Source: Microcystaceae cyanobacterium (lineage in GTDB: Bacteria > Cyanobacteriota > Cyanobacteriia > Cyanobacteriales > Microcystaceae). From it: DNA of 20,778 nucleotides. The position numbers and the translations under genes are program-made. Numbering within the stretch: the stretch's first letter is position 1; each line of letters begins with the position of its first letter. Shown one piece after another: positions 448 to 16,621 of this stretch. The notes under the pieces are model-generated. The model searched no databases, was not told the DNA's origin, and saw only the letters and a list, made by a program, of their open reading frames with translations. The stretch lies in assembly GCA_041746575.1 (NCBI GenBank), contig JBGTGT010000015.1:1-20778 (forward strand). The letters run 5' to 3'.

Positions 448-2808
448 TTATAGAGAAGGGCAAGCCGGAAAATCGAGAGTTTTAGGTGCATTTCCCTCTG
501 CTTTCAAAACAACTGTGCCGTCTTCCTTAAGACTCCATGCTTGTGCTTCAATAATCGGTTTTGGAAGCGGTAAAGGCGAAAAAGATGGGTTGAAACGAGA
601 ATCCTCTTGTGTTAATGTTGGCGTTCGTAAATCTACTAATCCTTGTATTGAATCGATTGAAGTGAGCGGATTAAGGGATAATCCACTACGTCCTACGATG
701 ACAAATCGTCCCCCTGCATATTCACCGACCGTACCGCATTGCTGAACAATGATATTCTGGGGATCAATTACATCAGCCGGCAGCGTTGCAAAACTACTTT
801 GAGGATCAAGATCAAGACGACTGATATTAATAATTCCCGAAACTCCGAACTGAGAACTAGCATTAATATCGCTAAATTCACTAAATTCCCGCTCTTCTAA
901 GCCAAAAATAGCAAAAGTTCGCAGTTCAATACTGCCACCGTTCCCTGCTTCTGCATTAGCTACAATATCCGTATTTTCAAGAGCCACTGCCTCAATAAAC
1001 GGCGTTTGAATGAGAATATTTCCTCCATTCCCCCCAACCGCTTGAGCAGAGATATAAGGATTATTCAAGGGTGTACCCTCAATATTATTGCGCAATACAA
1101 TAAAATCACTAGCATTAATTTGAATATTGCCCCCTTCCCCTGAATTACTCTCTGCACTAATTAACGCTTGATTATTAATCACAATACTTTCTGCTTCAAT
1201 GGCAATATTACCCGCATTCCCTAAACTTGTCCCACTGGTGGTAATTGTGCCTCGAAAGTCTGTCATTGCTTGGTTTTGTAGGATTAATTGACCTGTTTTG
1301 AGATCAATATTGCCCCCGTCGCCTGAACCTTGAGTTGTCGCAACAATACGACTCGGAATGGTTGTAATGCGATTTATTTCTGCTATGTCATCAAATTCTC
1401 GAAAGAGTCCAGTTCCCTCTAAATTTACGATTTCAGTTGCATTAATATTGATTAATCCTCCATCTCCGAAATCTTTGCTCGGTAGAGGAACACCCACAAG
1501 CGGGAAGGTCGATGCCCGAATTTCTGCACCATCCCGCATGACGAGCCGTTTCGTCGTAATATCAATCATCCCTGCATCACCGGCTGTCCGAGTGGCAACG
1601 GCGATGGAACTATTACCCACTTCTGAATTACTACCGCTCATTTCAATCGATTCTGAGGCTAAAATCCTCAAATTTCCGCTATTACCCTCGATATCAGAAC
1701 CATTCATTGACGAAAAAGTATCAGAAAAAATACCCGCACCGTCTTGAATACTGAAGTGTTTTGTGATGACTTCAATATTTCCTGCATTGCCATTATTAAA
1801 CGTTCGAGTGAATAATCCACTGGACAAGTCGTCTCGAAATCCGATGAGCTTCAGGGTATCAGAAGCTTGAACGACAATGTTGCCAGCAGATTTTTCTCCG
1901 AATACAAAAGAAATAAGCGCACTTCCCTCGCTCAAGGTAATATTGCGGCCAACCATTTGGATACTACCACTACCCAGTTCAAGTTGAGATAAGTCTGCTA
2001 TTACACGTTCTGACTCTGATACATCTACCGTCGTCAAATCAGAGAGGGTAATATCTTGGAACTGCTGGACTTTGTCATAGCTGAATTGCCACCCCAAGGG
2101 ATCCGGCACTAAATTAACAAAACTTCCTGCCGCTACACTTCCAATATCAATTCTGCCAGCAGGGGCTTTAAGATGAGCCGAATCTATATTGGGTAAAGGA
2201 CTCCCAATCGTCTCAATATCTCCCCCTAATAAAGCAAGGGTTTGTAGAGGCTTTACCACCAAGCGATCAGCCAACGTTTGTACTTGTATTGATTGCGCTT
2301 GTTGACCAAATTGTAAACCCATCGGAAGATTGATAGATAGTAAAGGAGAAGATTGTCCGATAACGCTACTAAAAATCTTGCCATCTTGAAAAACAAGGCT
2401 TTCTGCGGTAGTTGCCACGAAAGATCCTCCAATATTTAGAGAAGCGTTCGCCCCAAAGAGAATTCCATGGGGATTGAGCAGAAATAAACTGGCATTTCCT
2501 TGATTCTGGATTAGACCATCAATTTGGGAAGGATTTTGACCCGTGACTCGACTAAAAATATTAGTGATATCCGTCGGATTCAAGAATTGAGCAGATCCGT
2601 TCATTGGAACGGAAAAAGAATCAAAACTGTGATAAAGGTTACTGCCTACTCTTGCACCTCCTGTGATCTGAAAATCTTGGTTGTTTTCTGTCTGCACTGT
2701 AGTAACAGTGCTTAACGTATGATCAGGAGCAACTTGCGCGGTGGCGGGGGGACCTAGAACATTAAAACTAATTGCGATTAAGAGATAAGCATTTAACCAA
2801 GTGGACAT
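448..2808 (-). CDS. Filamentous haemagglutinin N-terminal domain protein (TpsA-like beta-helical exoprotein, cyanobacterial type)
   Basis: Signal peptide (ATA|QV). Haemagglutination-activity/TPS domain (NLYHSFDSFSVP, NIFSRVTG, LFLLNPHGILFG, GGSFVATTA). GNAGNI/GDAG/GDGG beta-helix repeats. Cyanobacterial C-terminal motifs INASSQFG, FVIVGRSGL and IIEAQAW. Confidence 0.93.
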   Translation of the reverse strand: MSTWLNAYLLIAISFNVLGPPATAQVAPDHTLSTVTTVQTENNQDFQITGGARVGSNLYHSFDSFSVPMNGSAQFLNPTDITNIFSRVTGQNPSQIDGLIQNQGNASLFLLNPHGILFGANASLNIGGSFVATTAESLVFQDGKIFSSVIGQSSPLLSINLPMGLQFGQQAQSIQVQTLADRLVVKPLQTLALLGGDIETIGSPLPNIDSAHLKAPAGRIDIGSVAAGSFVNLVPDPLGWQFSYDKVQQFQDITLSDLTTVDVSESERVIADLSQLELGSGSIQMVGRNITLSEGSALISFVFGEKSAGNIVVQASDTLKLIGFRDDLSSGLFTRTFNNGNAGNIEVITKHFSIQDGAGIFSDTFSSMNGSDIEGNSGNLRILASESIEMSGSNSEVGNSSIAVATRTAGDAGMIDITTKRLVMRDGAEIRASTFPLVGVPLPSKDFGDGGLININATEIVNLEGTGLFREFDDIAEINRITTIPSRIVATTQGSGDGGNIDLKTGQLILQNQAMTDFRGTITTSGTSLGNAGNIAIEAESIVINNQALISAESNSGEGGNIQINASDFIVLRNNIEGTPLNNPYISAQAVGGNGGNILIQTPFIEAVALENTDIVANAEAGNGGSIELRTFAIFGLEEREFSEFSDINASSQFGVSGIINISRLDLDPQSSFATLPADVIDPQNIIVQQCGTVGEYAGGRFVIVGRSGLSLNPLTSIDSIQGLVDLRTPTLTQEDSRFNPSFSPLPLPKPIIEAQAWSLKEDGTVVLKAEGNAPKTLDFPACPSL

Positions 2809-2867
2809 CTGCTGGAACAGAACGCATTTAATGCTATCTTAATACACAATTCGTCTCTTTCTCTATT

Positions 2868-2910
2868 AAAAAACCCCATATGAGTATCTTAGCAAGATTA
2901 ATTAGGGGTT
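2868..2910 (-). terminator. Possible intrinsic terminator downstream of the small peptide gene
   Basis: Minus strand reads AACCCC-TAATTA-ATCTT-GCT-AAGAT-ACTCATAT-GGGGTT-TTTT: outer and inner stems, an imperfect middle, and a U-tract. Confidence 0.45.
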
Positions 2911-2941
2911 ATATGTTTTTCTTCTCAGCCTTGATTGTGAA

Positions 2942-3106
2942 TTAACAACCTCGGCGGCACGCTTGAGGCTGGGTACTATTTTGGACTTGCTCTTGAGCAG
3001 AAGCCGATTGATTTCCATATTCGTTTTCAGCATTCACTCTTTTCACGAAACCGAAAGAAGCGGTCAGGGTGAGGGCAACGAGGGTGATAGTGGTTAGGGA
3101 TTTCAT
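2942..3106 (-). CDS. Small secreted peptide precursor (54 aa): Sec-type signal peptide plus ~28-aa mature peptide ending CRRGC
   Basis: ATG at 3106 is preceded by AAGGAG at 6 nt spacing, so it is preferred over the ORF-track start at 3127. Sequence: MKSLTTITLVALTLTASFGFVKRVNA|ENEYGNQSASAQEQVQNSTQPQACRRGC. It has a basic N-terminus, a hydrophobic core and a V-x-A cleavage site. Confidence 0.75.
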   Translation of the reverse strand: MKSLTTITLVALTLTASFGFVKRVNAENEYGNQSASAQEQVQNSTQPQACRRGC

Positions 3107-3112
3107 GGCTGA

Positions 3113-3118
3113 CTCCTT
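3113..3118 (-). promoter_or_regulatory. Shine-Dalgarno sequence (AAGGAG) of the small peptide gene
   Basis: Minus strand TTAAGGAGTCAGCC-ATG. Confidence 0.75.
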
Positions 3119-3486
3119 AAATTTCATCTTTTGATTTATGCTTACATCATAGACGAAGAGTTAAAGATCGAATAACCGAAAAACTCTTTAAATCTAAATA
3201 TATTTTATTTTTAACTTGTGGTGAATATACGGAATAGTTAAGAGGTTATTCATATATAACTGTAAAAATGAATCAGTTGTCTATCTTAATGGCCTGAAAT
3301 TTTGATGGACCTAAAAAGGAGTGACGGAAATCACAAGCCCAGGTTGATCTTAGACACACAATGACCGGCTCATCTCAAGCCCCTCAAGTCGGTCAAGAAT
3401 CTATCATATAAATAAGCCTTTGTCTTTCTGGTTAAGTTTTGGCTTTGTTTAACTCAAGTTCTTTTTAGTCTGACCTTCCCCTTCCC

Positions 3487-6057
3487 TTAACTAGACTGCC
3501 GTAGTAACTCCGTTGCCACCTCTTTCGAGAGGGGTTTAGCAAAGAAATAGCCTTGTCCGTATTCACATTCTAAATCTTGGAGAATCTGTACTTGGTCGCT
3601 AGTTTCAATCCCTTCGGCGATGACGTCTAGCTCTAGATTATGCCCCAGCGCAATAATTGTTCGTACGATTTGACTATATTTTCCCTCATCTTCTGAGAGA
3701 TCCATACGACTGACAAAAGAGCGATCAATTTTTAAAGTATCTATCGGAAAACGATGAAGATAACTTAAAGAAGAATAGCCCGTCCCAAAGTCATCAATGC
3801 TTAACCGCAGTCCCAACGCTTTCAAGCGTTTCAATAATTCAATAGCCGCTTCCACGTCATTCATCATCATACTTTCCGTAATTTCTAGCTTCAACATCTC
3901 CCCCGATAAGCCAATTTGCTCTAAAGTCAAGGCAATTTGAGAGACAAGATTGGGTTGACTAAATTGACGACTTGAAAGATTGACACTCATAATTACCGAT
4001 TGATGTTGGGGAAACATTTGTTGCCATGTCCGCATTTGACGACAGGCTTCTTTTAAAATCCATTGGCCGAGTTCCACAATTAATCCTGTTTCTTCAGCGA
4101 TGGGAATAAAAGCACTGGGAGAAACAAAGCCCCGTTTAGAGGATTGCCAGCGAACTAAAGCCTCAAATCCAGCAATTTTACGGTTTTTTAGCGATATAAT
4201 CGGCTGATAATAAAGTCGAAACTCTTGGTTCTTTAAGGCATTCCAGAGATCTATTTCTAATTCCCAGCGTTGAGTTGCTTCTAAATCCATGCCTGCCAAA
4301 TAGAGATCATGACGATCCTTACCTGCCTCTTTAGCTCGATTCATCGCAATATCTGCATATCTCAGCAGTTCTCGGGCTTGAAATTCTCGACCCAGCGTGC
4401 CATGGGCAATACCCACACTGGCTGTGCTACGAATTTCTGTTCCTTGCCAAATAAAAATTTCTGCCAGTTCTTGGTGAATTAACGCCACAATCGTGTCAAT
4501 TTTTGAGTTGTCCACGGCGGATTTTAAACAGATGGCAAATTCATCCCCACCGACTCGGCCCAGAAAAGCCTGATCCTGAAATAATTGCTTCAGTTTTAAG
4601 GCGATCGCTTTAAGCAAGCAATCTCCGGCTTCGGGGCCTAGGGCAGCGTTAATCTTATTGAAACCATCAATATCCAAGAAAAATAGGGTCACTTGGTCAT
4701 GGGAAGGATCTATGCCTACACGATTGAATTTCTGGAGATTTTGCAGAAATAAACGACGATTCGGCAACTCTGTTAACGGATCATGATAAGTTCGATAAAG
4801 GACTTTATAAGCGAGTAGAGACGCCCCGGTCAGTGCCAGACCGAGAAGGGCAGGAACAAAAGGAATCCAAAACCCTTGCAGGTAAAAAAGCAAACTGAGG
4901 CTCCAAATTCCTCCCACTGCCAGCAATACCCCGCTTAAAAGTGGAACGAGGCGATTTGTCCGCCAAACTAAGATGCCTCCGACCCAACTCCAGCCCCAAA
5001 TCCAAATCCATTCTTGCTGATTTGACCAAGACGTTAAGGACGGTTGATCTTCCAAAACGCTTTTGATAATTTGACTGACCATCAAGCCATGAATTTTGAC
5101 GCCCGGCATCTCAAAATTAGTCGTGTTGGCCGCACTATAAGGCGTTGGAAACGTATCTTTCTTACTCGGTGCAACATAACCCACGAGAATTATCTTATTT
5201 TCAAGCCAGTTTGGCTCAAAATCTCCAGTCAAAAGCTGTTCTAAGCTAATTTGGCGAGCTACTTGCGGAGAGTCATATTTCAATAATACCTGCCAACCTT
5301 GGGCTTCCGAAGCCGGCAACTGATATCCCCCCGACGTAGATGATAAACGGGGAAAAACCGTGGAACTTATCTGCAAATCGTCAGGAAAAACCTTAAATAC
5401 CTTCTTATTTCGAGATTCTAGATATTTGAGTGCAATTTGAAGAGCAAAAGCATAAGCTTTGACTTGACCATTGGGGGATTGTCCATAAAGAAAATAGCGA
5501 CGTACCACATTATCGGGATCAATAATGAGATCCACAAACCCCACTCTTGACGCAGGTATACCTAACGGCGGGGGAACACCTTGGCTCTCACTATTAGGCA
5601 ACTGGGTTGGAACAATAATATTTTCGGCTTTTAGGGCTTGAGCTAATGCTTCCTCGCCAGGGGGATGGGGAACATCCCGAAAGATATCCAGTCCAATCAC
5701 CGCCGGACGATGTTGCTGTAACGCTCTTAGGAGTTTGGCAATCACCGCATCCGAAAGTTCTCCTTGTTGTTGTTTTTGGAGGTCTTTTTCATTAATGCCA
5801 ATAATCAGTAGGCGATCATCTAAGCCTTGATGAGAGGTTAAACGAACCAGATGATCGTAAGCAGTCAGTTCCAAAAATTGTAAATACCCTTTTTGACGAA
5901 TGCCTCCCAAAGTGACGGTTACCACTAAAGAAGAAAAAAGGATTGGCAAAAATAACAGTGTCAAGCAACGCTTACGGAACGACGAATTAATAGCAGGCAA
6001 GGGTTGATTGGCAGCACCGAATCGTTTTTGTCGCTTTCGAGAAAAGGGAGAACTCAC
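3487..6057 (-). CDS. CHASE2 - 3TM - GGDEF - EAL c-di-GMP signalling protein
   Basis: N-terminal TM. CHASE2 motifs (LELTAYD, DDRLLIIGINEKDL, VIGLDIFRD, DPDNVVRR, MPGVKIHG). Three TM helices, then HDPLTELPNR, RVGGDEF, FEALVRW, LEITES, DDFGTGYSSLSYL, AEGIET and GQGYFF. GTG start. Confidence 0.95.
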   Translation of the reverse strand: MSSPFSRKRQKRFGAANQPLPAINSSFRKRCLTLLFLPILFSSLVVTVTLGGIRQKGYLQFLELTAYDHLVRLTSHQGLDDRLLIIGINEKDLQKQQQGELSDAVIAKLLRALQQHRPAVIGLDIFRDVPHPPGEEALAQALKAENIIVPTQLPNSESQGVPPPLGIPASRVGFVDLIIDPDNVVRRYFLYGQSPNGQVKAYAFALQIALKYLESRNKKVFKVFPDDLQISSTVFPRLSSTSGGYQLPASEAQGWQVLLKYDSPQVARQISLEQLLTGDFEPNWLENKIILVGYVAPSKKDTFPTPYSAANTTNFEMPGVKIHGLMVSQIIKSVLEDQPSLTSWSNQQEWIWIWGWSWVGGILVWRTNRLVPLLSGVLLAVGGIWSLSLLFYLQGFWIPFVPALLGLALTGASLLAYKVLYRTYHDPLTELPNRRLFLQNLQKFNRVGIDPSHDQVTLFFLDIDGFNKINAALGPEAGDCLLKAIALKLKQLFQDQAFLGRVGGDEFAICLKSAVDNSKIDTIVALIHQELAEIFIWQGTEIRSTASVGIAHGTLGREFQARELLRYADIAMNRAKEAGKDRHDLYLAGMDLEATQRWELEIDLWNALKNQEFRLYYQPIISLKNRKIAGFEALVRWQSSKRGFVSPSAFIPIAEETGLIVELGQWILKEACRQMRTWQQMFPQHQSVIMSVNLSSRQFSQPNLVSQIALTLEQIGLSGEMLKLEITESMMMNDVEAAIELLKRLKALGLRLSIDDFGTGYSSLSYLHRFPIDTLKIDRSFVSRMDLSEDEGKYSQIVRTIIALGHNLELDVIAEGIETSDQVQILQDLECEYGQGYFFAKPLSKEVATELLRQSS

Positions 6058-6396
6058 AGCTCGCTATGACCCATCGAAAATAATCAATATTAGCATAATT
6101 CAATCTAAAAATAGGTTAAAGACTGGTTTAGTCGTCCATGGGCTGTTTCAATAATCCATCTTCTCCCATGATAATCTGAATCTTTCTGGGATAACACGGA
6201 GTCGAGCCAATATTTTAATGATGATTCCTTATTTTCTAAGGACATTTTCCGATATTCTTTTCCGTTAGGAATAGGGTATATTGTAGATAGTGAATCTTTA
6301 TTCATCATCTTAAGCAACGATTGAGAGAATTTCAATTGCGCTAAATAAATTGAATGGTTTTTATACTTTTGAGCCAGTTTGGTTAGGGACATTGAT

Positions 6397-7371
6397 ATGA
6401 TAACTAAAATCTTCATAAATCGAGCAATCGGATTCACCAGTGTCTCCTCTCTTCTGATAGGGACGTTTTTGCTGTTTGCCAGCCCGTCTTTAGCTCTATC
6501 TGGCGGAGATTCTAACACCGTTAGTACTCCATCTCGTCGTAAGCCTGGAGCTAGTCGTTTTGACTCTTCTGCGTTATCAGAAGTCAGCAGTCCGTCTCGT
6601 CGTAAGCCTGGCAGTACCCGTGAAGCTGGACTGGCTAGTCCACTCCGTCGTAAACCGGGCAGTACCCGCGAAGAGGTGATTGTGAGTCCTCTCCGTCGTA
6701 AGCCTGGCAGTACTCGTTCTGATATTGCGCTGCTGTTGCAAGATCAGAAGAGCAAACAAGGTTCTTATCACTGTAATTCTGATATTTATCAGCTGACAGC
6801 ATTAATTCCTGAAAATCTTCAATTAAAGACGACTCAAGCGACCCCGACCCTCTATTTCAAGATGCCGTCTTTGCCAACTCCGACCGAAATGGAATTTGTC
6901 CTACAAGATGAACAGCGACAGGTTGTCTATGCGGCAACGCTACGGGGTAATCCTCAAGCAGGGATCATGGCTTTAACCCTTCCTCCCTCTCAAGAATTGC
7001 AAGTTAATCAAAATTATCGCTGGTATTTATCGGTGATTTGTGATGCGAATCGTCGGGAACGAGATTTGGTCGTGGAAGGATTAATCCAACGGGTTGAACT
7101 CGATGCCACGACGCGCCAAAGTTTGAGCCACGCCTCACGCCAAGAACAAATTCGTCTGTATCAAGCGCAAGGATTATGGCAAGATGCGCTACAAACGGTG
7201 GTCACTGCTTATCAAGAGAGTCACGAAGCGGCACTGATTCCGGTATGGCAATCTCTATTAATAGAGATTAATTTAGGCGGGCTGGAGGATGCGATGACGA
7301 AAAAAAGCTTTTTTGCCCTTGATTTGCAACCCCTCAGTCTGAATGTCCCCGCCCCAATTAATTCTGATTAA
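6397..7371 (+). CDS. DUF928 domain-containing secreted protein with N-terminal basic repeats
   Basis: ATG at 6397 is preferred over TTG at 6379. Signal peptide ends SLA|LS. DUF928 motifs C..LTALIP, PTLYF..P, EFVL.DE, L.V...YRWY.SVICD, V.G.IQRV and Y...GLWQDAL. The stop codon overlaps that of the convergent glycosyltransferase (TTAA 7368-7371). Confidence 0.88.
   Translation: MITKIFINRAIGFTSVSSLLIGTFLLFASPSLALSGGDSNTVSTPSRRKPGASRFDSSALSEVSSPSRRKPGSTREAGLASPLRRKPGSTREEVIVSPLRRKPGSTRSDIALLLQDQKSKQGSYHCNSDIYQLTALIPENLQLKTTQATPTLYFKMPSLPTPTEMEFVLQDEQRQVVYAATLRGNPQAGIMALTLPPSQELQVNQNYRWYLSVICDANRRERDLVVEGLIQRVELDATTRQSLSHASRQEQIRLYQAQGLWQDALQTVVTAYQESHEAALIPVWQSLLIEINLGGLEDAMTKKSFFALDLQPLSLNVPAPINSD
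6526..6717 (+). repeat. Four in-frame 33-bp repeats encoding TPSRRKPGASR, SPSRRKPGSTR, SPLRRKPGSTR and SPLRRKPGSTR
   Basis: Copies at 6526-6558, 6589-6621, 6637-6669 and 6685-6717 (periods 63, 48, 48 bp). DNA core CGTCGTAARCCKGG, varying mostly at synonymous positions. Confidence 0.95.
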
Positions 7372-8087
7372 AAGAATAGAGACCGAATAAAAAACTGAGG
7401 CAAAACCAGCATCCTGCGCCAACGCCAAGGCTCTTGGTACAAACGATATAACCATTCTAGATGATTCTCGCGTAACCATTTTGGTGCGCGATTTTTCATG
7501 CCCGACCAAATATCAAAACTGCCCCCCACCCCTATCCAAGTGGCATTCGGACAGAGATGACGGTGTTGTTGAATCCAAAATTCTTGACGAGGAACGCCCA
7601 AACCCACCAAAATTAAGCGAGGTTGGGTAGATTCGAGCTTTGTCAACCATTTTTCTTGCTCTTCTGGGGAAAGATAGCCATGGTTGGCAATAATCACCAT
7701 ATTTGGGACTTTTTTTTGCCAGTTTTGCACGGCAGTTGCCATCACATCGGGTTTTCCACCATAAAAAGCAACCAGGTTGCCCTGTTGTCCTACTTTTTCA
7801 ATCACCGAAGCGGCCAATTCGATTCCGGGACAACGTTTCTGTTGATATCCTCGCAAGCGTAAATAAATAACTACTCCTGCACCATCAGGGACAACTAACT
7901 CCGCTTTTCTGATGATTTCAGCAATTTTTGGTTCTTTCTCTGCTAAAGTCGCCATTTCTGCATTAAGAGTCACCACATGAGTTCCTTGGTGATGGTCAAT
8001 CCGTTCCTTTAACCAATCGGTATAATTGGGCAAGAGATGAAGCGGTAGCTTTAAAACAGAGGCAATTTTGGGCGAGTTTAGCATCAT
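7368..8087 (-). CDS. WecB/TagA/CpsF family glycosyltransferase
   Basis: Motifs VVTLNAE, VPDGAGV, R.PGIEL, VGLGVPRQE, IGVGGSFD..SG, RAP.W, LEWLYRL.QEPWRWRR. Confidence 0.95.
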   Translation of the reverse strand: MMLNSPKIASVLKLPLHLLPNYTDWLKERIDHHQGTHVVTLNAEMATLAEKEPKIAEIIRKAELVVPDGAGVVIYLRLRGYQQKRCPGIELAASVIEKVGQQGNLVAFYGGKPDVMATAVQNWQKKVPNMVIIANHGYLSPEEQEKWLTKLESTQPRLILVGLGVPRQEFWIQQHRHLCPNATWIGVGGSFDIWSGMKNRAPKWLRENHLEWLYRLYQEPWRWRRMLVLPQFFIRSLFF

Positions 8088-8128: not shown

Positions 8129-8548
8129 TCATGATAAATCCTGCTCGCTGGTTACTGATATAACCGCAATACAGTCAATTTCCACTAAAACATCCTTGGG
8201 AAGACGGGAAACTTCCACACAGGCTCTTGCTGGAGCAGTTTCTTCTGGGAAATATTGGGCATAGACTTGATTCATAGGAGTGAAATTAGTTAAATCACTG
8301 AGAAAAACAGTTGTTTTGACGACACTTTCCCAGTCAACATTTGCCTCTTTTAAAATTGCGTTTAAATTCTCCATTACTTGCTTAGTTTGGGCGGTGATAT
8401 CCCCGTGTCCGACGATTTCACCCGTTTGAGAATTGAGCGGAATTTGTCCTGCCACAAATAAAAATTGTCCCTTTGCCAAAATTGCTTGATTATAAGGTCC
8501 AACTGGAGCAGGGGCGTTATCAGTGCGAATAACGTGCTTAGAAACCAT
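8129..8548 (-). CDS. ridA: RidA / YjgF-YER057c-UK114 family reactive imine deaminase
   Basis: Motifs [51 protein letters not shown]. Confidence 0.92.
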
Positions 8549-8553
8549 CGAAT

Positions 8554-8976
8554 TTACACTCCATTAAGGTGAATCACAAGTTCTCGTCGCTGACTTCGTT
8601 GTCGATGTTCCCAAAGATAAATTCCTTGCCATGTTCCCAAAACTAAGCGACCCTGAGAAACAGGGATGAGTAAGCTGGTTTGGGTGAGAACCGAACGAAT
8701 ATGAGCCGGCATATCGTCTGCGCCTTCGGTACGATGAAGATATAAACTAGAATTTTCTGGCACCAGTTGGGCAAAAAAATGGCTTAAGTCTTGTAAAACA
8801 TCTGGATCAGCATTTTCTTGAATAATTAAGGATGCAGAAGTATGACGAATAAAAACTGTACATAAACCTATTTCGATTCCCGATTCTGTCACAATAGATT
8901 CGACTTTGCCAGTAACATTCTGAAAATTTTTGCCTGTCGTTGAAATGACTAAAGTACGCTGGTAATGCTGACTCAT
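8554..8976 (-). CDS. yjbQ: YjbQ / UPF0047 family protein (secondary thiamine-phosphate synthase)
   Basis: Motifs [39 protein letters not shown]. Start moved to ATG 8976 (MSQHYQ), giving the family-typical ~140 aa. Confidence 0.9.
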
Positions 8977-9089
8977 TATTTCTCTAACGATAAGGACAAA
9001 CTTTATTATAGATGATGAACGGAGATCAGTAACCGATAAACTGTTATTTATCCAATTCTTAAAATTTATAGAAAAAGGAGTCAAATACC

Positions 9090-10436
9090 TTGATATCTTC
9101 TCAACAAGATCTTCATATTAAACAAGCTCAAGCCAGTTTGCAACAAGCATTATCTTGGTACGCGAGTTTTCGCCGCCATTGGAATTATCCGCCTAATCCT
9201 GAATTACAGGCGGCCGTTCGGGAGGATATTCAAAGCCTCAAATCTGCCTTAGAAAAACTAGAACAAAATGAAATAAAAATTGCTACTTTTGGCTTAGTCA
9301 GTCGAGGAAAATCAGCAGTAATTAATGGATTATTAGGACAAAAAATATTACCCACTGGGCCGCTTCATGGGGTGACAAAATGGCCGAAATCGGTGGGTTG
9401 GATGCCGCCGAGTGGCAAGATAAAAATTGAGTTTATCGACACACCTGGATTAGATGAAATTGGAGGTCAAGCGCGAGAGGAAATGGCGCAAGAAGTGGCA
9501 AAAACCGCCGATTTGATTTTATTTGTGGTGACGGGAGATATCACTCAAACGGAATATCAAGCATTAGTCGAATTGAGACAGCATCAGAAACCGTTAGTCT
9601 TAGTTTTTAATAAAATTGATCTCTATCCTGAGCAAGATAAAGCAACAATTTATCAGCAACTTCAAGCTTTAGGGCAAAGAACAAATCTACGCTTTGCTCC
9701 CGATGAAATTGTTCGTGTGGCGGCAGAGCCTCAACCGATTCCTATTCGCACTGAATATCCAGAAGGAAGGGTGGAGGAAAACTGGGAAACGTTACCGCCC
9801 CAAATTCATGAACTTCAGGAGATTATTCTAAAAATTTTAAACCGAGAGGGGAAATCTTTATTAGCTATTAATAGTTTATTGCAGGCAAAAAAAGCAGAAG
9901 TAAATATTGCTAAAACGACACTTCAAGTGCGAGCAGAGGAAGCTGAAGCAGTGATCTGGAATTATGCTAAATATAAAGCGTTAGCCGTCGCTTTAAATCC
10001 CATTGCTATTATTGATATTGTAGGGGGATTTATGGCAGATTTGTCTTTGATTCGCTCTTTAGCTCGTTTATATGGATTACCAATTACTAGTTTTGAGGCG
10101 GGGACATTATGGCGTAAAATTTTAATCAGTTCAGGAGGATTATTATTAGGAGAAATGTTGACCGCTTTTGTATTAGGATTCGGCAAAACCTCTAGTATGG
10201 CTTTTAGTATTTTTGAAAGTCCGACCGCTTTAAGTTCTTACGCCAGTTTAACGCTATTACAGGGTTCAATTGCAGGATATAGTGCTTATATTATTGGCAA
10301 AGCGGCACAACAATATTTAGAAAAAGGGTGCAGTTGGGGTCCTTTAGGGGCAAGTACCGTTATTCAAACGATTTTAAATGAGGTTGATTCTGATACAATT
10401 ATTAGTCGATTACAAAATCCCTTATCTCCTTACTGA
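9090..10436 (+). CDS. GTP-binding protein with C-terminal DUF697 (YcjF-like) domain
   Basis: G1 GLVSRGKS, G3 DTPG and G4 NKID. C-terminal hydrophobic region with AVALNPI..ID, LARLYG, AGY..YIIG and SWG..G. TTG start is uncertain. Confidence 0.88.
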   Translation: MISSQQDLHIKQAQASLQQALSWYASFRRHWNYPPNPELQAAVREDIQSLKSALEKLEQNEIKIATFGLVSRGKSAVINGLLGQKILPTGPLHGVTKWPKSVGWMPPSGKIKIEFIDTPGLDEIGGQAREEMAQEVAKTADLILFVVTGDITQTEYQALVELRQHQKPLVLVFNKIDLYPEQDKATIYQQLQALGQRTNLRFAPDEIVRVAAEPQPIPIRTEYPEGRVEENWETLPPQIHELQEIILKILNREGKSLLAINSLLQAKKAEVNIAKTTLQVRAEEAEAVIWNYAKYKALAVALNPIAIIDIVGGFMADLSLIRSLARLYGLPITSFEAGTLWRKILISSGGLLLGEMLTAFVLGFGKTSSMAFSIFESPTALSSYASLTLLQGSIAGYSAYIIGKAAQQYLEKGCSWGPLGASTVIQTILNEVDSDTIISRLQNPLSPY

Positions 10437-10509
10437 TGACTTAAGTTTTGAAAATAAAAGTTTTGTTGATTTTTTGCTAAAATTGTTGAACAAATAAGGA
10501 TAATTAATA

Positions 10510-10839
10510 ATGATTCATAAAGTTTTAATTTTATTTTTGGCGTTATTTTTCTGGCTTCATTCTTCGATTCTACCTGTATCTGCCAGTCCAGATGTACCCA
10601 AACTGTTTGAGGTCAATTGTGCTGGATGTCATCCCCATGGAGGGAATATTATTCGACGGGGAAAAACATTAAAACAGAAAGCCCTTAAACGTTATAATAT
10701 GGATTCTCAAGAAGCTATTATGGCGATTATTGCTCAGGGCAAAAATAATATGTCTGCTTTTGGCGATCGCTTGACGGAATCTGAAATATCTGCTATTGCT
10801 AGTTATGTCTTAGAGAAGGCAGAAACAAACTGGCGATAA
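10510..10839 (+). CDS. petJ2: Cytochrome c6-like protein, probably the c6C (PetJ2) type
   Basis: Signal peptide, CAGCH haem motif, GGNIIRRGKTLK, axial Met in GKNNMSAF, C-terminal W. AAGGA RBS at 10496-10500. Ile replaces the Gln conserved in true c6. Confidence 0.8.
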   Translation: MIHKVLILFLALFFWLHSSILPVSASPDVPKLFEVNCAGCHPHGGNIIRRGKTLKQKALKRYNMDSQEAIMAIIAQGKNNMSAFGDRLTESEISAIASYVLEKAETNWR

Positions 10840-10876
10840 TTATTAATTTATTAACCCTTATTGAGGTGTGTTTTTG

Positions 10877-11269
10877 ATGTCTGCTTATTCCTATTCAAGT
10901 TTAGTCACTGTCGTTGCTTTGCTCACTTATCTTATTTTAACGATCAATGTGGGAATTGCGCGGAGAAAATATAAAGTTTCTGTGCCTCAAATGGCAGGAG
11001 AGCCAAATTTTGAGAGAGTTTTAAGAGTTCAACAAAATACCTTAGAGCAATTAATTTTATTTCTACCTTCGCTTTGGTTATTCTCTTTTTATATTAACCC
11101 TATGTGGGGTGCAATCATTGGTAGCGTTTGGATTCTTGGCCGTATTGTTTATGCGTGGGGATATTATCAAGCCGTAGAGAAAAGAGGCATCGGTTTTGCT
11201 GTTAGTTCTTTGAGCAGTTCTGTGTTATTGTTGGGAGCATTATTTGGTATTATTCGTCCTTTTTTTTAA
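10877..11269 (+). CDS. MAPEG family membrane protein
   Basis: Motifs VG.ARRKYKV..P...G...FERVLRVQQNTLEQ and W..GR..YA.GY. ATG 10877 follows a GAGG RBS at 10863-10866 and is preferred over GTG 10868. Confidence 0.92.
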   Translation: MSAYSYSSLVTVVALLTYLILTINVGIARRKYKVSVPQMAGEPNFERVLRVQQNTLEQLILFLPSLWLFSFYINPMWGAIIGSVWILGRIVYAWGYYQAVEKRGIGFAVSSLSSSVLLLGALFGIIRPFF

Positions 11270-11309
11270 ATAAAAATTATTAACTTTAATTTTTTTGAAT
11301 CACTGAGCT

Positions 11310-12185
11310 ATGATAATCCCAATAAAACAAACTTTTAAACAGAGTATCACCTCCTTATTAGATAGTAATTATGCTATGTCTATGGCGTGGCGAGCTTATT
11401 TAATTGAAAGACTACTTGATCGTTGCCTTTTTATTGTTTATTCTGATGGTAAAGTCGGCTCAACGACATTAACTGTTTCTCTTAAAAAAAATTATCCTAA
11501 TCAATTTGTTTTTCACATTCATCGTTTAACTGAAGCGTCAATCGCTGAAATTGAGAATTATTATCAACAAAATAAGACAAAGCCTAGTCAAATTCCTGAT
11601 AATGTAGTTCAAAGTAAATTTCTTCATCAAAACTTAGCAACGCTTTTTAACACCCATAAGCTGTGCTTTTTTTCTTTAGTTCGTGATCCCATTGCCGCTC
11701 TTGTTTCTGAGTATTGTGAGAATTATCCTTACGCTCAAAAAAGCTTAGTGAAGTCGGAAGATGAAATTGCAACCGAAATGATCCAAACCCTCTTTGATCT
11801 TTTCAAATCTGATAAAATACAATCGAGATTAAACTGGTTTGATTGGGAATTAAAACAAGCGTTAGACTTTGATATTTATACAGAAACCTTTGAGAAAGAG
11901 AAAGGATATCATATTTATTCAGTTAAAAATCTTTTAATCTTGAAACTGGAAATGTTAAATACTCAGATAACCTCCGCGATGAAAGTGTTCTTAGGTTGTC
12001 ATGAGTTTTTTTTAGAAAAGGGCAATCAAGCGGAAGTATCGAGTTATCATCATATTTATCAAAAAGTAAAGCAGGCGATTAAACTTCCTGCCGAAACATT
12101 GGATAAAATTTACACTTCAAAGTATGTACAGTATTTTTATCAAGATGACGAAATTCAAATTTTTAGACAGCGATGGCAACAATAA
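11310..12185 (+). CDS. Putative capsular polysaccharide synthesis family protein (NKWYS-like, sulfotransferase-like fold)
   Basis: GKVGSTTL resembles the 5'-phosphosulfate-binding loop and LVRDPIA..VS the 3'-phosphate-binding motif. Also H.H.L, WFD.E, KGY, L.LE.L, IY.SKY...FY...E and a terminal W. Confidence 0.75.
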   Translation: MIIPIKQTFKQSITSLLDSNYAMSMAWRAYLIERLLDRCLFIVYSDGKVGSTTLTVSLKKNYPNQFVFHIHRLTEASIAEIENYYQQNKTKPSQIPDNVVQSKFLHQNLATLFNTHKLCFFSLVRDPIAALVSEYCENYPYAQKSLVKSEDEIATEMIQTLFDLFKSDKIQSRLNWFDWELKQALDFDIYTETFEKEKGYHIYSVKNLLILKLEMLNTQITSAMKVFLGCHEFFLEKGNQAEVSSYHHIYQKVKQAIKLPAETLDKIYTSKYVQYFYQDDEIQIFRQRWQQ

Positions 12186-12350
12186 CGTTTGTATTCTGTC
12201 TTTCACCCATTCATTCCTAACGACTTTTTGGAAAGTACCGCTTCGAGTAAAACGCCTTTTATTTATCTGACGAATAGAGGAACAGCCTTTTTATCTCAAG
12301 CGTCACTCAGAGGTGATAAGGTGATAAACAAATTCTTCACGAGTGACTCA

Positions 12351-13514
12351 ATGATGGTGTGGCGATACCTCATTCCTTTCTATGATCCCGATGCCTCAAC
12401 GTGGACGGCAGAAGCTCGCTTATTGCGTTGGTTGACCTTTGTTTGGCTTTGTATTGGCTTAATTACCTTATTTTCTGCCTCTTATCCTGTAGCAGATGTC
12501 GAACAAGGCGACGGACTCTATTATTTTAAGCGACAATTAATTTGGTTAATCTTGGGCTTTTTAGGCTTTAATGTTATTGTGCGATCGCCCCTTAAAACCT
12601 TTCTTAAACTGGCACCTTGGGGCTTATTCGGCTCTTTTTTCCTGATTTTAGCGACTCATCTTCCCGGATTAGGCACAGAAGTCAATGGAGCGACTCGTTG
12701 GATTGGTATTGGACCTTTATTATTACAACCGTCGGAAATCCTTAAACCCTTTCTAATATTACAAAGTGCGCAGGTTTTTGGGGATTGGGATCGCTATAAT
12801 TGGAATTTTCGCTTAACGTGGGTAGGTATTTTTGCTGTTGTTTTAGTGAGTATCCTCCTTCAACCGAATTTAAGTACCACTGCTCTTTGTGGCATGAGCT
12901 TATGGTTAATTGCCCTCGCTTCAGGGTTACCCTTACGTTATCTCAGTTTAACGGCGATCGCTGGGGTGGGAACTGCCGTTTTAAGTATTAGTATCAAAGA
13001 ATATCAACGCTTACGGATTATTTCCTTTCTTGATCCTTGGGCAGATCCGATGGGTAATGGTTATCAATTGGTGCAAAGTCTCTTGGCAATTGGTTCTGGG
13101 GGATTATGGGGGACAGGTTACGGTTTATCGCAACAAAAACTATTTTACCTACCGATTCAATATACAGACTTCATCTTTTCGGTTTATGCTGAAGAATTTG
13201 GCTTAATTGGTAGTCTGCTTTTGCTAATTTTACTCTTCTGTTATGCCACCCTAGCGTTAAGAGTGGCGATGCGGTGTCGTCATCGGGTAAAACGATTAGT
13301 AGCCATTGGCGTAATGGTCGTTTTGGTGGGACAATCGTTACTAAATATTGGTGTGGCGACAGGCTCGTTACCTACCACCGGATTACCTCTTCCTTTCTTT
13401 AGTTATGGTGGCAGTTCAACCTTAGCCAGTTTAGCACTCGCCGCTTTACTGATTCGGGTAGCACGGGAAAAATCAGACGAAAATATCGTTCCTATGGCAA
13501 AATATCAGCATTGA
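12351..13514 (+). CDS. ftsW: SEDS family peptidoglycan glycosyltransferase FtsW
   Basis: Cyanobacterial N-terminus LIPF.D..W..EARLLRWLT. Motifs LFSASY, NGATRWI, QPSE..K, QPNLST, GYQLVQS..AIGSGG, LP...TDFIF...EE.G and G.LPTTG.PLP..SYGG. The TTG start at 12189 is probably too far upstream. Confidence 0.9.
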   Translation: MMVWRYLIPFYDPDASTWTAEARLLRWLTFVWLCIGLITLFSASYPVADVEQGDGLYYFKRQLIWLILGFLGFNVIVRSPLKTFLKLAPWGLFGSFFLILATHLPGLGTEVNGATRWIGIGPLLLQPSEILKPFLILQSAQVFGDWDRYNWNFRLTWVGIFAVVLVSILLQPNLSTTALCGMSLWLIALASGLPLRYLSLTAIAGVGTAVLSISIKEYQRLRIISFLDPWADPMGNGYQLVQSLLAIGSGGLWGTGYGLSQQKLFYLPIQYTDFIFSVYAEEFGLIGSLLLLILLFCYATLALRVAMRCRHRVKRLVAIGVMVVLVGQSLLNIGVATGSLPTTGLPLPFFSYGGSSTLASLALAALLIRVAREKSDENIVPMAKYQH

Positions 13515-13587
13515 AGAAGGCAGATACAGTGTTTTTGGTTTCCGAATATGAGTTTAAAATTGAAACTTTACGACATGACACTCAGTA

Positions 13588-13642
13588 GTGACATACCCGC
13601 CGCTAAATCGGGAGACTTCTCACCGAAGGGGGTTAAAGTCAA
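13588..13642 (-). mobile_element. Possible degenerate IS200/IS605-type end (hairpin remnant)
   Basis: Minus strand reads ...A-GAAG-TCTCCCGATTTAGCGGCGGGTATG-TCAC, i.e. guide / imperfect hairpin / terminal tetranucleotide. GC-rich patch within an AT-rich spacer. Confidence 0.4.
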
Positions 13643-13686
13643 GACGTTTTGCTCTCTTTTTTGATTGCCGACTTCAGAAAACCGAA

Positions 13687-13740
13687 TTGACATCAGAGAC
13701 AATTATGAGATAATAATGAAATATGAAACAATTGTGAAAA
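13687..13740 (+). promoter_or_regulatory. mntCAB promoter with ManR-like direct-repeat operators
   Basis: TTGACA (13687-13692)-N16-GATAAT (13709-13714). Two repeat pairs with 11-bp period: TATGAGAT-AAT-AATGAAAT (13704-13722) and TATGAAAC-AAT-TGTGAAAA (13722-13740). These resemble the (T/A)ATGA(G/A)A-type ManR site. Confidence 0.65.
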
Positions 13741-13758
13741 GCAGTTGGCGATTTCCCA

Positions 13759-14727
13759 ATGATCCCACAATTCGATCTCACAAATTTAGTATTAGCGATC
13801 GCTATCATCGGAGGAATAGGATTAACCGGTTGCACGTCAACCAAAGTTAGATCCCCTTCTTCATTGGATTTAACAGCTAATCAGCCAGAAAATGCCAAAG
13901 AAAAGAAAAAAGTATTGACAACCTTTACCGTTTTAGCAGATATGGCTCAAAAGGTAGCCGGTGATAAGCTGAGGGTAGAGTCTATTACCCGTGTTGGGGC
14001 AGAAATTCATGGTTATGAACCCACTCCTAGCGATATCGTTAAAGGACAGGATGCTGATTTGATTTTGTATAATGGCTTGAATTTGGAAAGCTGGTTTGAA
14101 CCGTTTTTAGGAAATGTCAAAAATGTGCCTTCTGTCTTGTTAACTAAGGGAATTGAACCCATCTCCATTACTGAAGGTGTTTATCGTAATAAACCCAATC
14201 CTCACGCTTGGATGTCGCCCCAGAATGCTTTAATCTATGTTGAGAATATTCGTCAAGCCTTTATCAAACTTGATCCTCAAAATGCAGAAACGTACAATGC
14301 CAATGCAAAAGCTTACAGTGAGAAATTAAAAGCCATCGATCAAAAACTAAGAAAAGATATGCAGAAAATACCTGAAAAAAAACGTTATTTAGTCAGTTGT
14401 GAAGGGGCGTTTTCCTATCTGGTGCGAGATTATGGCATGAAAGAGATTTATTTATGGCCGATTAATGCAGAACAGCAATTTACACCAAAACAGCTTAAAA
14501 TCGTCATTGATAAGGTAAAAACGCAAAATATTCCCACTATTTTCTGCGAAAGTACCGTCAGCGATAAAGGGCAAAAAGAAGTCGCCAAGACCACAGGAGC
14601 GCAATTTGGCGGAAATCTTTATGTAGATTCGCTTTCTACGGCAGAAGGAGCCGTTCCCACCTATTTAGATCTACTAGAATACGACATTCGCACAATTACG
14701 AAGGGTTTATTATCTGTAAACCATTAA
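13759..14727 (+). CDS. mntC: Mn ABC transporter substrate-binding lipoprotein
   Basis: Lipobox LTG|C. His/His/Glu/Asp ligand set (EIHGYEP, NPHAW, SCEGAF, YVDSL). Cys pair (SCEG/FCES) as in cyanobacterial MntC. Confidence 0.88.
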   Translation: MIPQFDLTNLVLAIAIIGGIGLTGCTSTKVRSPSSLDLTANQPENAKEKKKVLTTFTVLADMAQKVAGDKLRVESITRVGAEIHGYEPTPSDIVKGQDADLILYNGLNLESWFEPFLGNVKNVPSVLLTKGIEPISITEGVYRNKPNPHAWMSPQNALIYVENIRQAFIKLDPQNAETYNANAKAYSEKLKAIDQKLRKDMQKIPEKKRYLVSCEGAFSYLVRDYGMKEIYLWPINAEQQFTPKQLKIVIDKVKTQNIPTIFCESTVSDKGQKEVAKTTGAQFGGNLYVDSLSTAEGAVPTYLDLLEYDIRTITKGLLSVNH

Positions 14728-14792
14728 ATGTAGAAAGGCAAGATTTGCACCAAAACCCATTACGTTACCCTTATTGATCATTACTCACGACT

Positions 14793-15572
14793 ATGGAAAC
14801 TATTACTCAATCGTTCAATATTACCGTCAATAACCTAAGCGTTACCTATAATAATGCCCGATTAGCTCTTTATAATGCCAGTTGTATCGTGAAATCAGGA
14901 AAAATTACTGCTTTAGTTGGTCCTAATGGGGGAGGCAAATCCACTTTATTTAAGTCGATGATGGGTTTTTTAAAGCCCAGTGAGGGAAAAATCGCTATTG
15001 GTAACTTTTCGGTGCAAAAAGCGCAAAAAAACCAACTGATGGCTTATGTTCCTCAGTCAGACGACGTAGATTGGAACTTTCCTGTTAGTGTCTTCGATGT
15101 AGTGATGATGGGGCGTTACGGTTACATGAATCTGTTACGGATTCCCTCAGCGAAAGATCGTCGTCTAGTGATGGAAAGCTTAGAAAGAGTGGGGATGAGT
15201 GACTATCGCCATCGACAAATTGGAGAACTCTCAGGAGGACAAAAAAAACGGGCATTTTTAGCGCGCGCTTTGGCACAAGAAGGCAAAGTAATTTTACTTG
15301 ATGAACCTTTTACAGGGGTAGATGTAAAGACGGAAAAAGGCATGATTGACTTATTAATGCAGTTACGGGATGAAAAAAACACGATTTTGCTTTCTACCCA
15401 CGATTTAGCGTCTATTTCAACTTTTTGCGATCGCATTATTCTCCTTAATCGTACCATTCTCGCTGAAGGAACAACCGCAGAAACCTTTACGGAGGAAAAC
15501 CTCACAATGACGTTTGGGGGGTTACCGATTAACCGTCTTCGTGGGAATTCGATTTATAAAAAGACCTATTAA
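14793..15572 (+). CDS. mntA: Mn ABC transporter ATP-binding protein
   Basis: Walker A GPNGGGKST, YVPQ...DWNFP, signature LSGGQKKR, Walker B ILLDEPF, H-loop STHDL. Confidence 0.9.
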   Translation: METITQSFNITVNNLSVTYNNARLALYNASCIVKSGKITALVGPNGGGKSTLFKSMMGFLKPSEGKIAIGNFSVQKAQKNQLMAYVPQSDDVDWNFPVSVFDVVMMGRYGYMNLLRIPSAKDRRLVMESLERVGMSDYRHRQIGELSGGQKKRAFLARALAQEGKVILLDEPFTGVDVKTEKGMIDLLMQLRDEKNTILLSTHDLASISTFCDRIILLNRTILAEGTTAETFTEENLTMTFGGLPINRLRGNSIYKKTY

Positions 15573-15640
15573 TGAAAGTGTATTATAGGGGCGCGTATGT
15601 TTTTGTTTATTATAAAGAAATAAGAAGGAAAAGTTGAAAA

Positions 15641-16540
15641 ATGAAAGCCCTGTATCTTAGTGCAACGATTTCGCTATGGAATTGGTTTATTGAACCGTTA
15701 CAATATGAGTTTTTAGTCAAAGCGATTGGAGTAAGTGCCTTTGTTGGCTTAGTTTGTGCGGTTTTATCCTGTTATATTACTCTCAAAGGATGGTCATTAA
15801 TGGGGGATGCCGTTTCCCATGCGGTTGTACCGGGGGTGGTGGTATCTTATGCTTTAAATATTCCCTTTGCGATTGGGGCATTTATTTTTGGCTTTGGAGC
15901 AACGGTTGCCATTGGATTTATAAAAGCAAAAACCCGTTTGAAGGAGGATACGGTAATTGGAGTAGTATTTACAGGATTTTTTGCCTTGGGTTTAGTCTTA
16001 GTCACTAAAATTCCCAGTAATATCGATTTATTTCATATTCTTTTTGGCAATGTGCTAGGTATTTCTCAATCGGATATGATTCAAACGTTGATAGCAGGAA
16101 CAATTACCCTTGTAGTGATTCTCTTACGGCGGAAAGACCTATTATTATTTTGTTTTGACCCAAATCACGCTAAAGCGATCGGTTTAAGTACCGCTTTTAT
16201 GTATTATACTTTGCTTTCTGTTCTTGCTCTTACTATTGTTACGGCATTACAAACAGCAGGAATTATTTTGGTGATTGCCATGTTAGTCACCCCCGGTGCC
16301 ATTGCCTATCTCTTAACGGATCGTTTTGATTATATGCTGTTAATTTCAGTCATCAGTAGCGTTTTTTCAAGTATTTTTGGCACTTATCTTAGCTATCATT
16401 TAGATGTCTCCACAGGAGGCTGTATTGTCCTGTCGCTTACCTTTTTGTTTATCATTGTCATGTTTTTTGCCCCTAAATACGGTATTTTGATACAACAGTC
16501 TCACAAAGATTTGAATACAATTAACGATCATCAGTTATAA
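15641..16540 (+). CDS. mntB: Mn ABC transporter permease (ABC-3 family)
   Basis: Motifs SLMGDAVSHAVVPG, DTVIG..F...FALG, LFG.VLG, FD...AKAIG, G.ILV.A.L..P. Multiple TM helices. Confidence 0.9.
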   Translation: MKALYLSATISLWNWFIEPLQYEFLVKAIGVSAFVGLVCAVLSCYITLKGWSLMGDAVSHAVVPGVVVSYALNIPFAIGAFIFGFGATVAIGFIKAKTRLKEDTVIGVVFTGFFALGLVLVTKIPSNIDLFHILFGNVLGISQSDMIQTLIAGTITLVVILLRRKDLLLFCFDPNHAKAIGLSTAFMYYTLLSVLALTIVTALQTAGIILVIAMLVTPGAIAYLLTDRFDYMLLISVISSVFSSIFGTYLSYHLDVSTGGCIVLSLTFLFIIVMFFAPKYGILIQQSHKDLNTINDHQL

Positions 16541-16621
16541 AAAGATGTGAGGTTTATTTGAATTAAAAAGATAAAATGTATAGCGTTATTATCCTAAATT
16601 CATCTATTAACTATTAACGAT

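Follow-up and report, generated by a model that had tools for sequence, protein, structure and literature searches.

A cyanobacterial family of secreted-type peptide precursors whose hypervariable two-cysteine core is exchanged together with the front of the adjacent TpsA protein

What would a small secreted peptide bind when its gene lies between those of a surface exoprotein and a cyclic di-GMP (c-di-GMP) receptor? The question is raised by a locus of a Microcystaceae cyanobacterium (assembly GCA_041746575.1, genome size 4.2 Mb, G000 in our numbering), in which a short precursor gene is flanked by genes for a TpsA-type protein and a CHASE2-GGDEF-EAL receptor, with a DUF928 gene beyond. The window analysed here is the entire contig C15 (JBGTGT010000015.1), 20,778 nt. 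A sequence-only reading of it had proposed that the peptide, or peptides cut from DUF928, are the periplasmic ligands of CHASE2. The part of that interpretation concerning gene linkage and a real secreted-type peptide has held; CHASE2 as the receptor is not supported as stated, and the likely receptor has moved to TpsA. We favour strain-specific peptide signalling, in which an allele-specific peptide would bind TpsA and be relayed through the TpsA tail and DUF928 to CHASE2 and c-di-GMP, and we see about equal grounds for trusting and for doubting it. The layout as first described was confirmed from the open reading frames (ORFs): receptor, peptide and TpsA genes run in one direction on the minus strand and DUF928 is divergent from the receptor. 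All four products are predicted to be exported or membrane-bound, signal peptides and membrane helices of the window proteins being called by eye and hydropathy alone, and both the CRRGC tail of the peptide and the four RRKPG[AS][ST]R copies in DUF928 are present.

The small ORF proved to be a genuine and recurrent gene of secreted type, as had been supposed. Its start lies most likely at 3106, with AAGGAG 6 nt 5′ of the ATG, and its product ends in CRRGC. It has no Pfam match and reaches no NCBIfam cut-off; the best NCBIfam match in the family, for one relative (P0022), scored 18.4 bits against a cut-off of 40. A word-indexed homologue search with the peptide returned only the peptide itself. 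Relatives were recovered by a single-sequence genome search, which placed them directly 5′ of the TpsA orthologue in both congeners and, more weakly, at CHASE2-linked loci, and then by profile searches, which gave full-length short-frame matches in 18 of 89 genomes of its own family, in 7 additional non-family genomes when 401 of the order were searched, and in 5 more when 401 of the class were. These counts exclude weak matches that cover solely the signal peptide of long ORFs, and some weak short-frame rows (e.g. G304, G398) were left uninspected. A protein library added 23 representatives. Three of ten peptide clusters looked up were named, each as 'hypothetical protein'. The common precursor plan consists of a signal peptide, a spacer rich in Q, E, N, S and T, a TQPQ-like motif and a C-terminal two-Cys core of 4–14 residues; Met1 and the two core cysteines are near invariant, and nothing else is. 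P0018 has the same CRRGC core after another leader. Over 8 pairs, the leaders differ by 29, 19 and 56 substitutions at codon positions 1, 2 and 3, which favours third positions. Three tandem precursor copies with an identical core and drifting leaders are found in G012, and two identical copies in G056. Because relatives hold the same position, the library contains representatives and third codon positions are favoured, we take the peptide gene to be real; on these sequence patterns the small ORF founds a family, hitherto unannotated, of signal-peptide precursors with a hypervariable two-cysteine core.

Gene maps of stretches fetched around 30 peptide loci place the family in a consistent neighbourhood. 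A TpsA gene lies 3′ of the peptide on the same strand at 26 of the 30, counting G195, where TpsA is in pieces about 1.4 kb away; the survey for unannotated signal-peptide ORFs that had been suggested came out in favour of the linkage, with a CHASE2 gene in the fetched stretch at 18 of 30 loci and DUF928 at 19 of 30. Three loci (G066, G069, G088) have CHASE2-GGDEF-EAL directly upstream and no TpsA beside the peptide, a TpsA of the same type being encoded elsewhere in each genome, and in G726 the peptide locus runs into a contig edge. In both congeners the peptide and TpsA genes stay together on a contig apart from CHASE2 and DUF928. The claimed linkage of filamentous-haemagglutinin-like, CHASE2 and DUF928 genes recurs in several cyanobacterial families: peptide, TpsA, CHASE2 and DUF928, often with CHAT and TpsB, are clustered in families f14, f56 and f46. 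The order is peptide-TpsA-CHASE2-DUF928 plus convergent CHAT and TpsB in f14, and peptide-TpsA-CHAT-DUF928-CHASE2 on a single strand in one f56 genome; in f46, DUF928 is divergent from peptide-TpsA-CHAT. At the DUF928 loci of 37 relatives within the family, DUF928 stands head to head with the CHASE2 gene in 33, beside WecG in 30 and near CHAT in none. WecG was not seen at the peptide loci of other families, and the WecG/TagA gene is probably a syntenic neighbour outside the system.

The evidence that singles out TpsA comes from strains that are nearly identical elsewhere. In G064, G067 and G068, WecG is 93–98% identical and the peptide cores are unrelated. At the protein level, TpsA residues 181–480 are 44–80% identical in these strains versus 96–100% for residues 541–720, and windows of CHASE2 and of central DUF928 are 83–100% and 88–100% identical. 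The DNA shows the same island of divergence, running from the peptide core through the 5′ two-thirds of TpsA: the core and spacer are 28–37% identical and the TpsA part 53–77%, between flanks at 83–99% and 88–96%, so that a conserved leader adjoins a switched core. G084 and G085 repeat this pattern. Among four f14 genomes, the TpsA middle is 49–67% identical in five of six pairs, with residues 481–600 at 90–97%, CHAT at 81–98%, DUF928 at 78–95% and the CHASE2 protein at 82–100% save in one window; in the f46 genomes, which are too distant (tail 50–70%), no island is clearly visible. Within a clade of 15 loci, core similarity follows both the TpsA middle (partial r 0.32, p 0.004, tail and leader controlled) and the TPS (two-partner secretion) domain (partial r 0.31, p 0.008) and does not track the TpsA tail (r −0.09). 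Trees of the TpsA front and rear, built from 19 of 40 sequences, reject each other in approximately unbiased (AU) tests (p 1e-125 and 0.0009), and in the front tree carriers of CPSFPYC, CPTYPYC and CPGWPWC are grouped across genera with support 1.0, as are carriers of CPGKC, CHRCR and CARC. Judged from these alignments and trees, the peptide core and TpsA front are exchanged together as a cassette.

The locus thus splits into a variable module, the core and TpsA front, and a constant module formed by the TpsA tail, TpsB, DUF928 and CHASE2. The simplest reading of the split is that the former is ligand and receptor face and the latter the transducer. Because the core varies with the TpsA front while CHASE2 and DUF928 are conserved, TpsA rather than CHASE2 is the likely specificity partner of the peptide. 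As a separate observation, one congener carries a second peptide-TpsA-TpsB cassette (L281, G035:C48) whose alleles are nested among those of genus g7, likely by horizontal gain.

Properties of the TpsA protein are compatible with such a role. Its N-terminal TPS domain scores 205 bits for PF05860 (cut-off 33.5, E 2e-60), and TIGR01901 is also matched. The AlphaFold model (mean predicted local confidence, pLDDT, 69) is a beta-helix between residue 23 and about residue 635, followed by an unfolded tail, and its best PDB fold match is HxuA in the HxuA-haemopexin structure 4RT6 (E 1.6e-10). Among close relatives, with strand classes and inward or outward orientation assigned by sequence pattern and not from coordinates, variation peaks at 0.59 in the middle coils, on the outward-facing positions of a single strand class, compared with 0.35 at inward positions, 0.42–0.44 at outward positions on other strands and 0.09 in the distal coils. 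The C-terminal part is the most conserved region among relatives, and all 40 aligned TpsA proteins share Cys691 and Cys783, at a spacing of roughly 90–130 residues across the set. An orphan TpsB on contig C98 (G000:C98:40864-42612) is the best match, at 53–59%, to the TpsB proteins adjoining this TpsA in five relatives. HxuA and HMW1 are believed to be anchored in TpsB through a C-terminal disulfide, their tail staying periplasmic (PMC4873976, PMC5422565, as far as the accessible parts of these papers go). By analogy, the Cys691–Cys783 segment is likely a periplasmic anchor and relay tail; it encloses a tail that is far longer than that of HxuA or HMW1 and is conserved, which suits a relay role.

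We next turn to the constant partners. In the window receptor the GGDEF, EAL and DDFGTG motifs are intact, as are GGDEF and EAL in most orthologues, and the CHASE2 domain has 11 invariant acidic residues among 12 orthologues. DUF928 carries both the PF06051 domain and an N-terminal P..RR.GGxSR-like motif, in which Pro and Arg are invariant across 20 diverse aligned members. Copies of the motif number 0, 1, 2, 3 and 4 in 2, 8, 25, 1 and 1 of 37 relatives, three or four copies being confined to the two congeners, and a fourfold repeat to the genus of the window. The proposed release of ligand peptides from DUF928 loses its footing here: the repeat is a family-wide N-terminal motif, present once or twice in 33 of 37, and nothing in these data supports release. 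The Arg motif cannot carry strain identity because it is conserved family-wide, but it may well touch CHASE2, where the acidic residues offer a possible site by sequence. Neither CHASE2 nor DUF928 has a significant PDB sequence match. One DUF928-CHASE2-WD40 cluster and an acid-stress response of sll1891 have been noted before (accessible part of PMC5587647). Some orthologous loci depart from the window layout: CHASE2-GGDEF-EAL is frameshifted in G068 (L069:9429-12094), G014 has a truncated DUF928 and no detected CHASE2 (L094:1605-3742), and an IS200/605-type TnpB-like ORF, recognized by eye, lies between DUF928 and CHASE2 in G037 (L067:3437-4612).

In the model that we favour, the precursor would be exported by Sec and cleaved by some protease after the TQPQ-like motif, yielding a disulfide-closed peptide that would bind, at the cell surface, to the variable face presented by the cognate TpsA. 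TpsA would be held in the orphan TpsB on C98 by its Cys691–Cys783 tail; that conserved tail would pass the signal to DUF928, the Arg motif of DUF928 would engage CHASE2, and the receptor, which has the domains for it, would alter c-di-GMP. The output might be density or kin sensing, e.g. aggregation or biofilm. In this scheme TpsA resembles an input more than an output, and the suggestion that c-di-GMP controls it as an adjacent adhesin has found no support. Two precedents are HxuA, a TpsA that is short and anchored and has a protein as its ligand, and rhizobial CHASE2 cyclases that answer a protein signal via an outer-membrane protein (PMC4873976; PMC13001267, PMC7529298; each in its accessible part).

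Several observations weigh against this model. Cassette exchange alone does not imply binding, since the core and TpsA genes adjoin, and joint exchange of neighbours is also expected from plain linkage. Over all 40 pairs, the correlation of core with TpsA middle is not significant (partial r 0.06, p 0.12), and in the sixth f14 pair, G234/G182, the cores are unrelated although the TpsA middles are 77–87% identical. One 60-residue window of the f14 CHASE2 protein falls to 67% in two pairs, and the CHASE2 proteins at f14 and f56 loci lack GGDEF and EAL matches, which means that c-di-GMP is not a general output. A TpsA gene lies within 9 kb at just 8 of the 37 orthologous DUF928 loci. A screen made without the profile speaks for the model, having detected a small secreted Cys-tailed ORF 5′ of TpsA in 20 of 69 cases versus 2 of 989 own-genome long ORFs by strict rules and in 23 of 69 versus 43 of 989 by loose rules, one positive in the background counts being the window locus itself; the strict rules, however, were chosen after the peptides had been seen, and the TpsA sample was ranked by likeness to that of the window. 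Among these upstream ORFs are a second small type and also longer forms resembling TPR proteins, and 49 of the 69 TpsA genes have no such peptide upstream by the strict rules. No processing enzyme is conserved next to the peptide and no additional gene recurs in the peptide-locus maps, whose neighbours were not scanned against enzyme families. Finally, the model leaves the peptide's way across the outer membrane unaccounted for.

Other readings of the same data have to be considered. The peptide might be an antagonist of non-kin, bacteriocin-like or signal-jamming, with TpsA as a self-protective trap or a sensor of foreign alleles and CHASE2 reporting attack. Extreme diversification and cassette swapping, here between genera, are typical of conflict systems, and many cores are predicted cationic or aromatic disulfide hairpins. 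However, at the length of CARC or CRRGC a core is small for a toxin, tandem copies are identical where a varied arsenal might be expected, and neither a small immunity gene nor a dedicated exporter recurs beside the peptide in the gene maps; we consider an antagonist unlikely. That peptide and TpsA form no cognate pair at all, TpsA being an ordinary adhesin under phage or grazer pressure and the end of the peptide gene being dragged along by recombination, would fit the physical adjacency of the genes, the weak correlation across the 40 pairs, the G234/G182 exception and the three genomes in which the two are unlinked. It fits poorly with a peptide gene that keeps both Cys and the TQPQ-like motif while the intervening residues change, keeps its leader while the adjoining core switches, and keeps its position 5′ of TpsA across orders, and we find this rather unlikely.

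A structural role has also been weighed, in which the peptide caps or switches its own TpsA to tune kin-specific cell-cell adhesion, with CHASE2 and DUF928 regulating or monitoring it as LapD and LapG do for CdrA. Cleavage of the CdrA tail is a precedent (PMC5422565, in its accessible part), and the tight co-orientation of the peptide and TpsA genes, the c-di-GMP output and the CHAT proteases at related loci agree with it. Yet the window TpsA is short, with a beta-helix of about 610 residues, and a conserved cleavage-like motif and tandem duplication better suit a released, dose-dependent product, which makes a cap quite improbable to our minds. Most doubtful of the four is direct binding to CHASE2 as first proposed. 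It is favoured by a CHASE2-GGDEF-EAL gene directly 5′ of the peptide at 11 of the 18 family loci, including three with no TpsA there, by the 33 of 37 DUF928-CHASE2 linkage and by the acidic CHASE2 residues that could accept the Arg motif. Against it, CHASE2 stays 83–100% identical between strains with unrelated cores, the peptide remains with TpsA, away from CHASE2, in both congeners and with TpsA in five other family genomes, and the DUF928 motif is too conserved to mark a strain. A contact-dependent inhibition (CDI) or polymorphic toxin was rejected because the TpsA C-terminus is its most conserved part and no ORF above 60 aa that could be a downstream immunity gene lies on the TpsA strand in 1–447, 3′ of TpsA. 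CDI toxin, ribosomally synthesized and post-translationally modified peptide (RiPP, e.g. of the MNIO class) and direct CHASE2-ligand readings all rank below the favoured peptide-TpsA model.

How does the locus compare with known systems? In Staphylococcus agrBDC and Bacillus comQXP, the peptide gene and the stretch of the following gene that binds the ligand make up one hypervariable block, which is exchanged and lies between conserved flanks. The window locus is alike in having such a block over the peptide and the presumed sensing part of its partner. It differs in that the block consists of peptide and TpsA only, with no dedicated maturase or histidine kinase; the partner is a type Vb exoprotein, the host is diderm, the precursor is of Sec type with a predicted disulfide core, and no sequence relationship is expected. 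HxuA/HxuB and HMW1 of Haemophilus influenzae share with the window protein a TPS domain, an all beta-helix fold of similar size, a C-terminal Cys pair and the best fold match (PMC4873976, PMC5422565; accessible parts, as for all papers cited in this comparison). HxuA binds a protein ligand at the cell surface, as proposed for the window TpsA, but its cysteines are 6 residues apart versus 92 enclosing a conserved tail here, and it binds through its C-terminal part for haem uptake, whereas in the window TpsA it is the front and middle that vary with a peptide encoded by the same genome, among signalling neighbours (PMC4873976). The Sinorhizobium meliloti NsrA-CyaK/CyaD1/CyaD2-Clr pathway likewise runs from outer-membrane sensing of an extracellular protein through CHASE2 to a cyclic nucleotide; there a host ribosomal protein serves as the signal and the barrel protein itself as the sensor, and no self-made hypervariable peptide, TpsA or DUF928 is described in the accessible parts (PMC13001267, PMC7529298). 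The CHASE2 inner-membrane receptor of the window carries GGDEF-EAL as its cyclic-nucleotide output, not an adenylate cyclase as in that pathway.

CdiBAI, like the locus, is a TPS system whose alleles vary and which follows a kin/non-kin logic, but here the C-terminus is conserved, there is no toxin domain, and a small variable gene with a signal peptide lies upstream (PMC5422565, PMC3482391). Pseudomonas CdrA/CdrB with LapG likewise combines a TpsA whose C-terminal tail lies in the periplasm with a periplasmic protease and c-di-GMP; in that system the adhesin is under c-di-GMP control, and no variable peptide, CHASE2 or DUF928 figures in the accessible part (PMC5422565). In the magnetotactic MtxA-CHASE2 cluster (PMC4439547) and the Burkholderia LysM-FecR-CHASE2 operon (PMC5192318), a CHASE2 gene stands beside an exported partner of undefined role, as here; window DUF928, which has no sequence match to any PDB chain, is compared with these partners by gene context. 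The locus belongs to neither the agr/ComQXP nor the CDI class. By analogy, it resembles a pherotype cassette combined with a surface receptor of the HxuA kind and a relay across the envelope like that of NsrA.

Further loci with related parts were noted. The own genome holds a second, complete module (G000:C123:82718-96135) with TPR-CHAT, TpsA, a TPR protein, a likely subtilase (by eye), TpsB, DUF928 and an AAA-like/CHASE2 protein; its TPR protein, a 154-aa frame with a Cys-rich tail, sits directly 5′ of TpsA in the position of the window peptide. The same genome has a PEP-CTERM-like protein (by eye) ahead of a TpsA that adjoins a divergent CHAT gene (G000:C133:93122-99877), and an additional DUF928-CHASE2 pair (G000:C122:3854-7037). 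A PEP-CTERM-like gene also precedes one TpsA at L283, and at L168:260-1375 an exported protein with a FecR-like start and a TPR-like end (by eye), 5′ of a long TpsA, is reminiscent of the MtxA and FecR partners of CHASE2. Secreted precursors of 54–170 aa with four-Cys tails lie 5′ of other TpsA genes (L181, L182, L185, L188, L189, L198, L210, L215); several are TPR-like by eye, and all of these precursors are probably further branches of the same ligand class. In genera g13 and g3 of family f1, the window TpsA as query detected no TpsA at E 1e-30 in 17 and 3 genomes, and DUF928 gave weak matches in 2 of 17 and none of 3; the module may have been lost there.

Features of the locus are collected in Table 1. 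For DUF928, the ATG at 6397 is a likelier start than 6379. No CHAT or TpsB gene lies inside the window; the genome has four TpsB and five CHAT genes elsewhere. A promoter scan of the window was at chance level (14 versus 14.2 expected) and found no terminator. The ESM Atlas gave nothing but unnamed clusters at 0.80, a lead at best. The remainder (8129–20641), by eye, encodes RidA, YjbQ, a GTPase, cytochrome c6, MAPEG, FtsW, a Mn ABC transporter, a peptide ABC permease, FabZ, LpxC and a FAD oxidase, with a sulfotransferase-like ORF of low GC (by eye) at 11310–12185.

Table 1. Positions of the peptide, TpsA, receptor, DUF928 and WecG/TagA features in the window
Feature	Position	Strand	Basis
TpsA, short (786 aa), type Vb exoprotein, beta-helical	448..2808	-	PF05860, TIGR01901, AlphaFold, 4RT6 fold match
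TpsA C-terminal tail bounded by Cys691 and Cys783	460..738	-	invariant Cys, unfolded in model
TpsA middle beta-helix, residues 169-480, hypervariable	1369..2304	-	identity among relatives, strand-position variation
Peptide precursor gene, 54 aa	2942..3106	-	no Pfam family, no NCBIfam above cut-off
CRRGC core of peptide precursor	2945-2959	-	
TQPQA motif of peptide precursor	2960-2974	-	
Shine-Dalgarno-like AAGGAG ahead of peptide ATG	3113..3118	-	sequence reading
CHASE2-GGDEF-EAL inner-membrane receptor, 856 aa	3487..6057	-	PF05226, PF00990, PF00563
CHASE2 domain of receptor	4972-5919	-	
DUF928 protein, exported (by eye/hydropathy)	6379..7371	+	PF06051
DUF928 N-terminal Arg/Gly motif x4, P-x-RRKPG[AS][ST]R	6526..6717	+	repeat family D2
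WecG/TagA glycosyltransferase	7368..8087	-	PF03808

In the literature covered, which largely leaves out subscription papers and supplements, we found no description of the peptide family or of a swapped cassette, and the accessible parts of PMC2853523, PMC3482391, PMC5192318, PMC4439547 and PMC8195603 do not describe this system. The peptide family and its co-exchange with TpsA appear to be new as a gene system. The same literature defines neither a direct CHASE2 ligand nor what DUF928 does. To our knowledge, no peptide pheromone has been established for signalling between cells of unicellular cyanobacteria. A broader reading, which we hold tentatively as possible rather than probable, is that peptide pherotypes are widespread in cyanobacteria, with a surface protein of type Vb as the allele-specific receptor and varied CHASE2 outputs; disulfide-closed ligands would come from a continuum of secreted precursors, namely TQPQ-type, SQGGKC-type and TPR proteins with Cys-rich tails, and the signal would cross the periplasm to CHASE2 through the TpsA tail and DUF928, sometimes with a CHAT protease. 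The finding offers synthetic ligands of 4–14 residues, a predicted receptor and c-di-GMP as a measurable output, and near-identical strains provide a natural allele series for comparing cognate with non-cognate pairs. If the favoured model is true, two-partner secretion proteins would have a new role, and there would be a handle on colony, biofilm and bloom behaviour; if the broader reading is true as well, peptide quorum or kin sensing would extend to a diderm phylum, with a new class of receptor.

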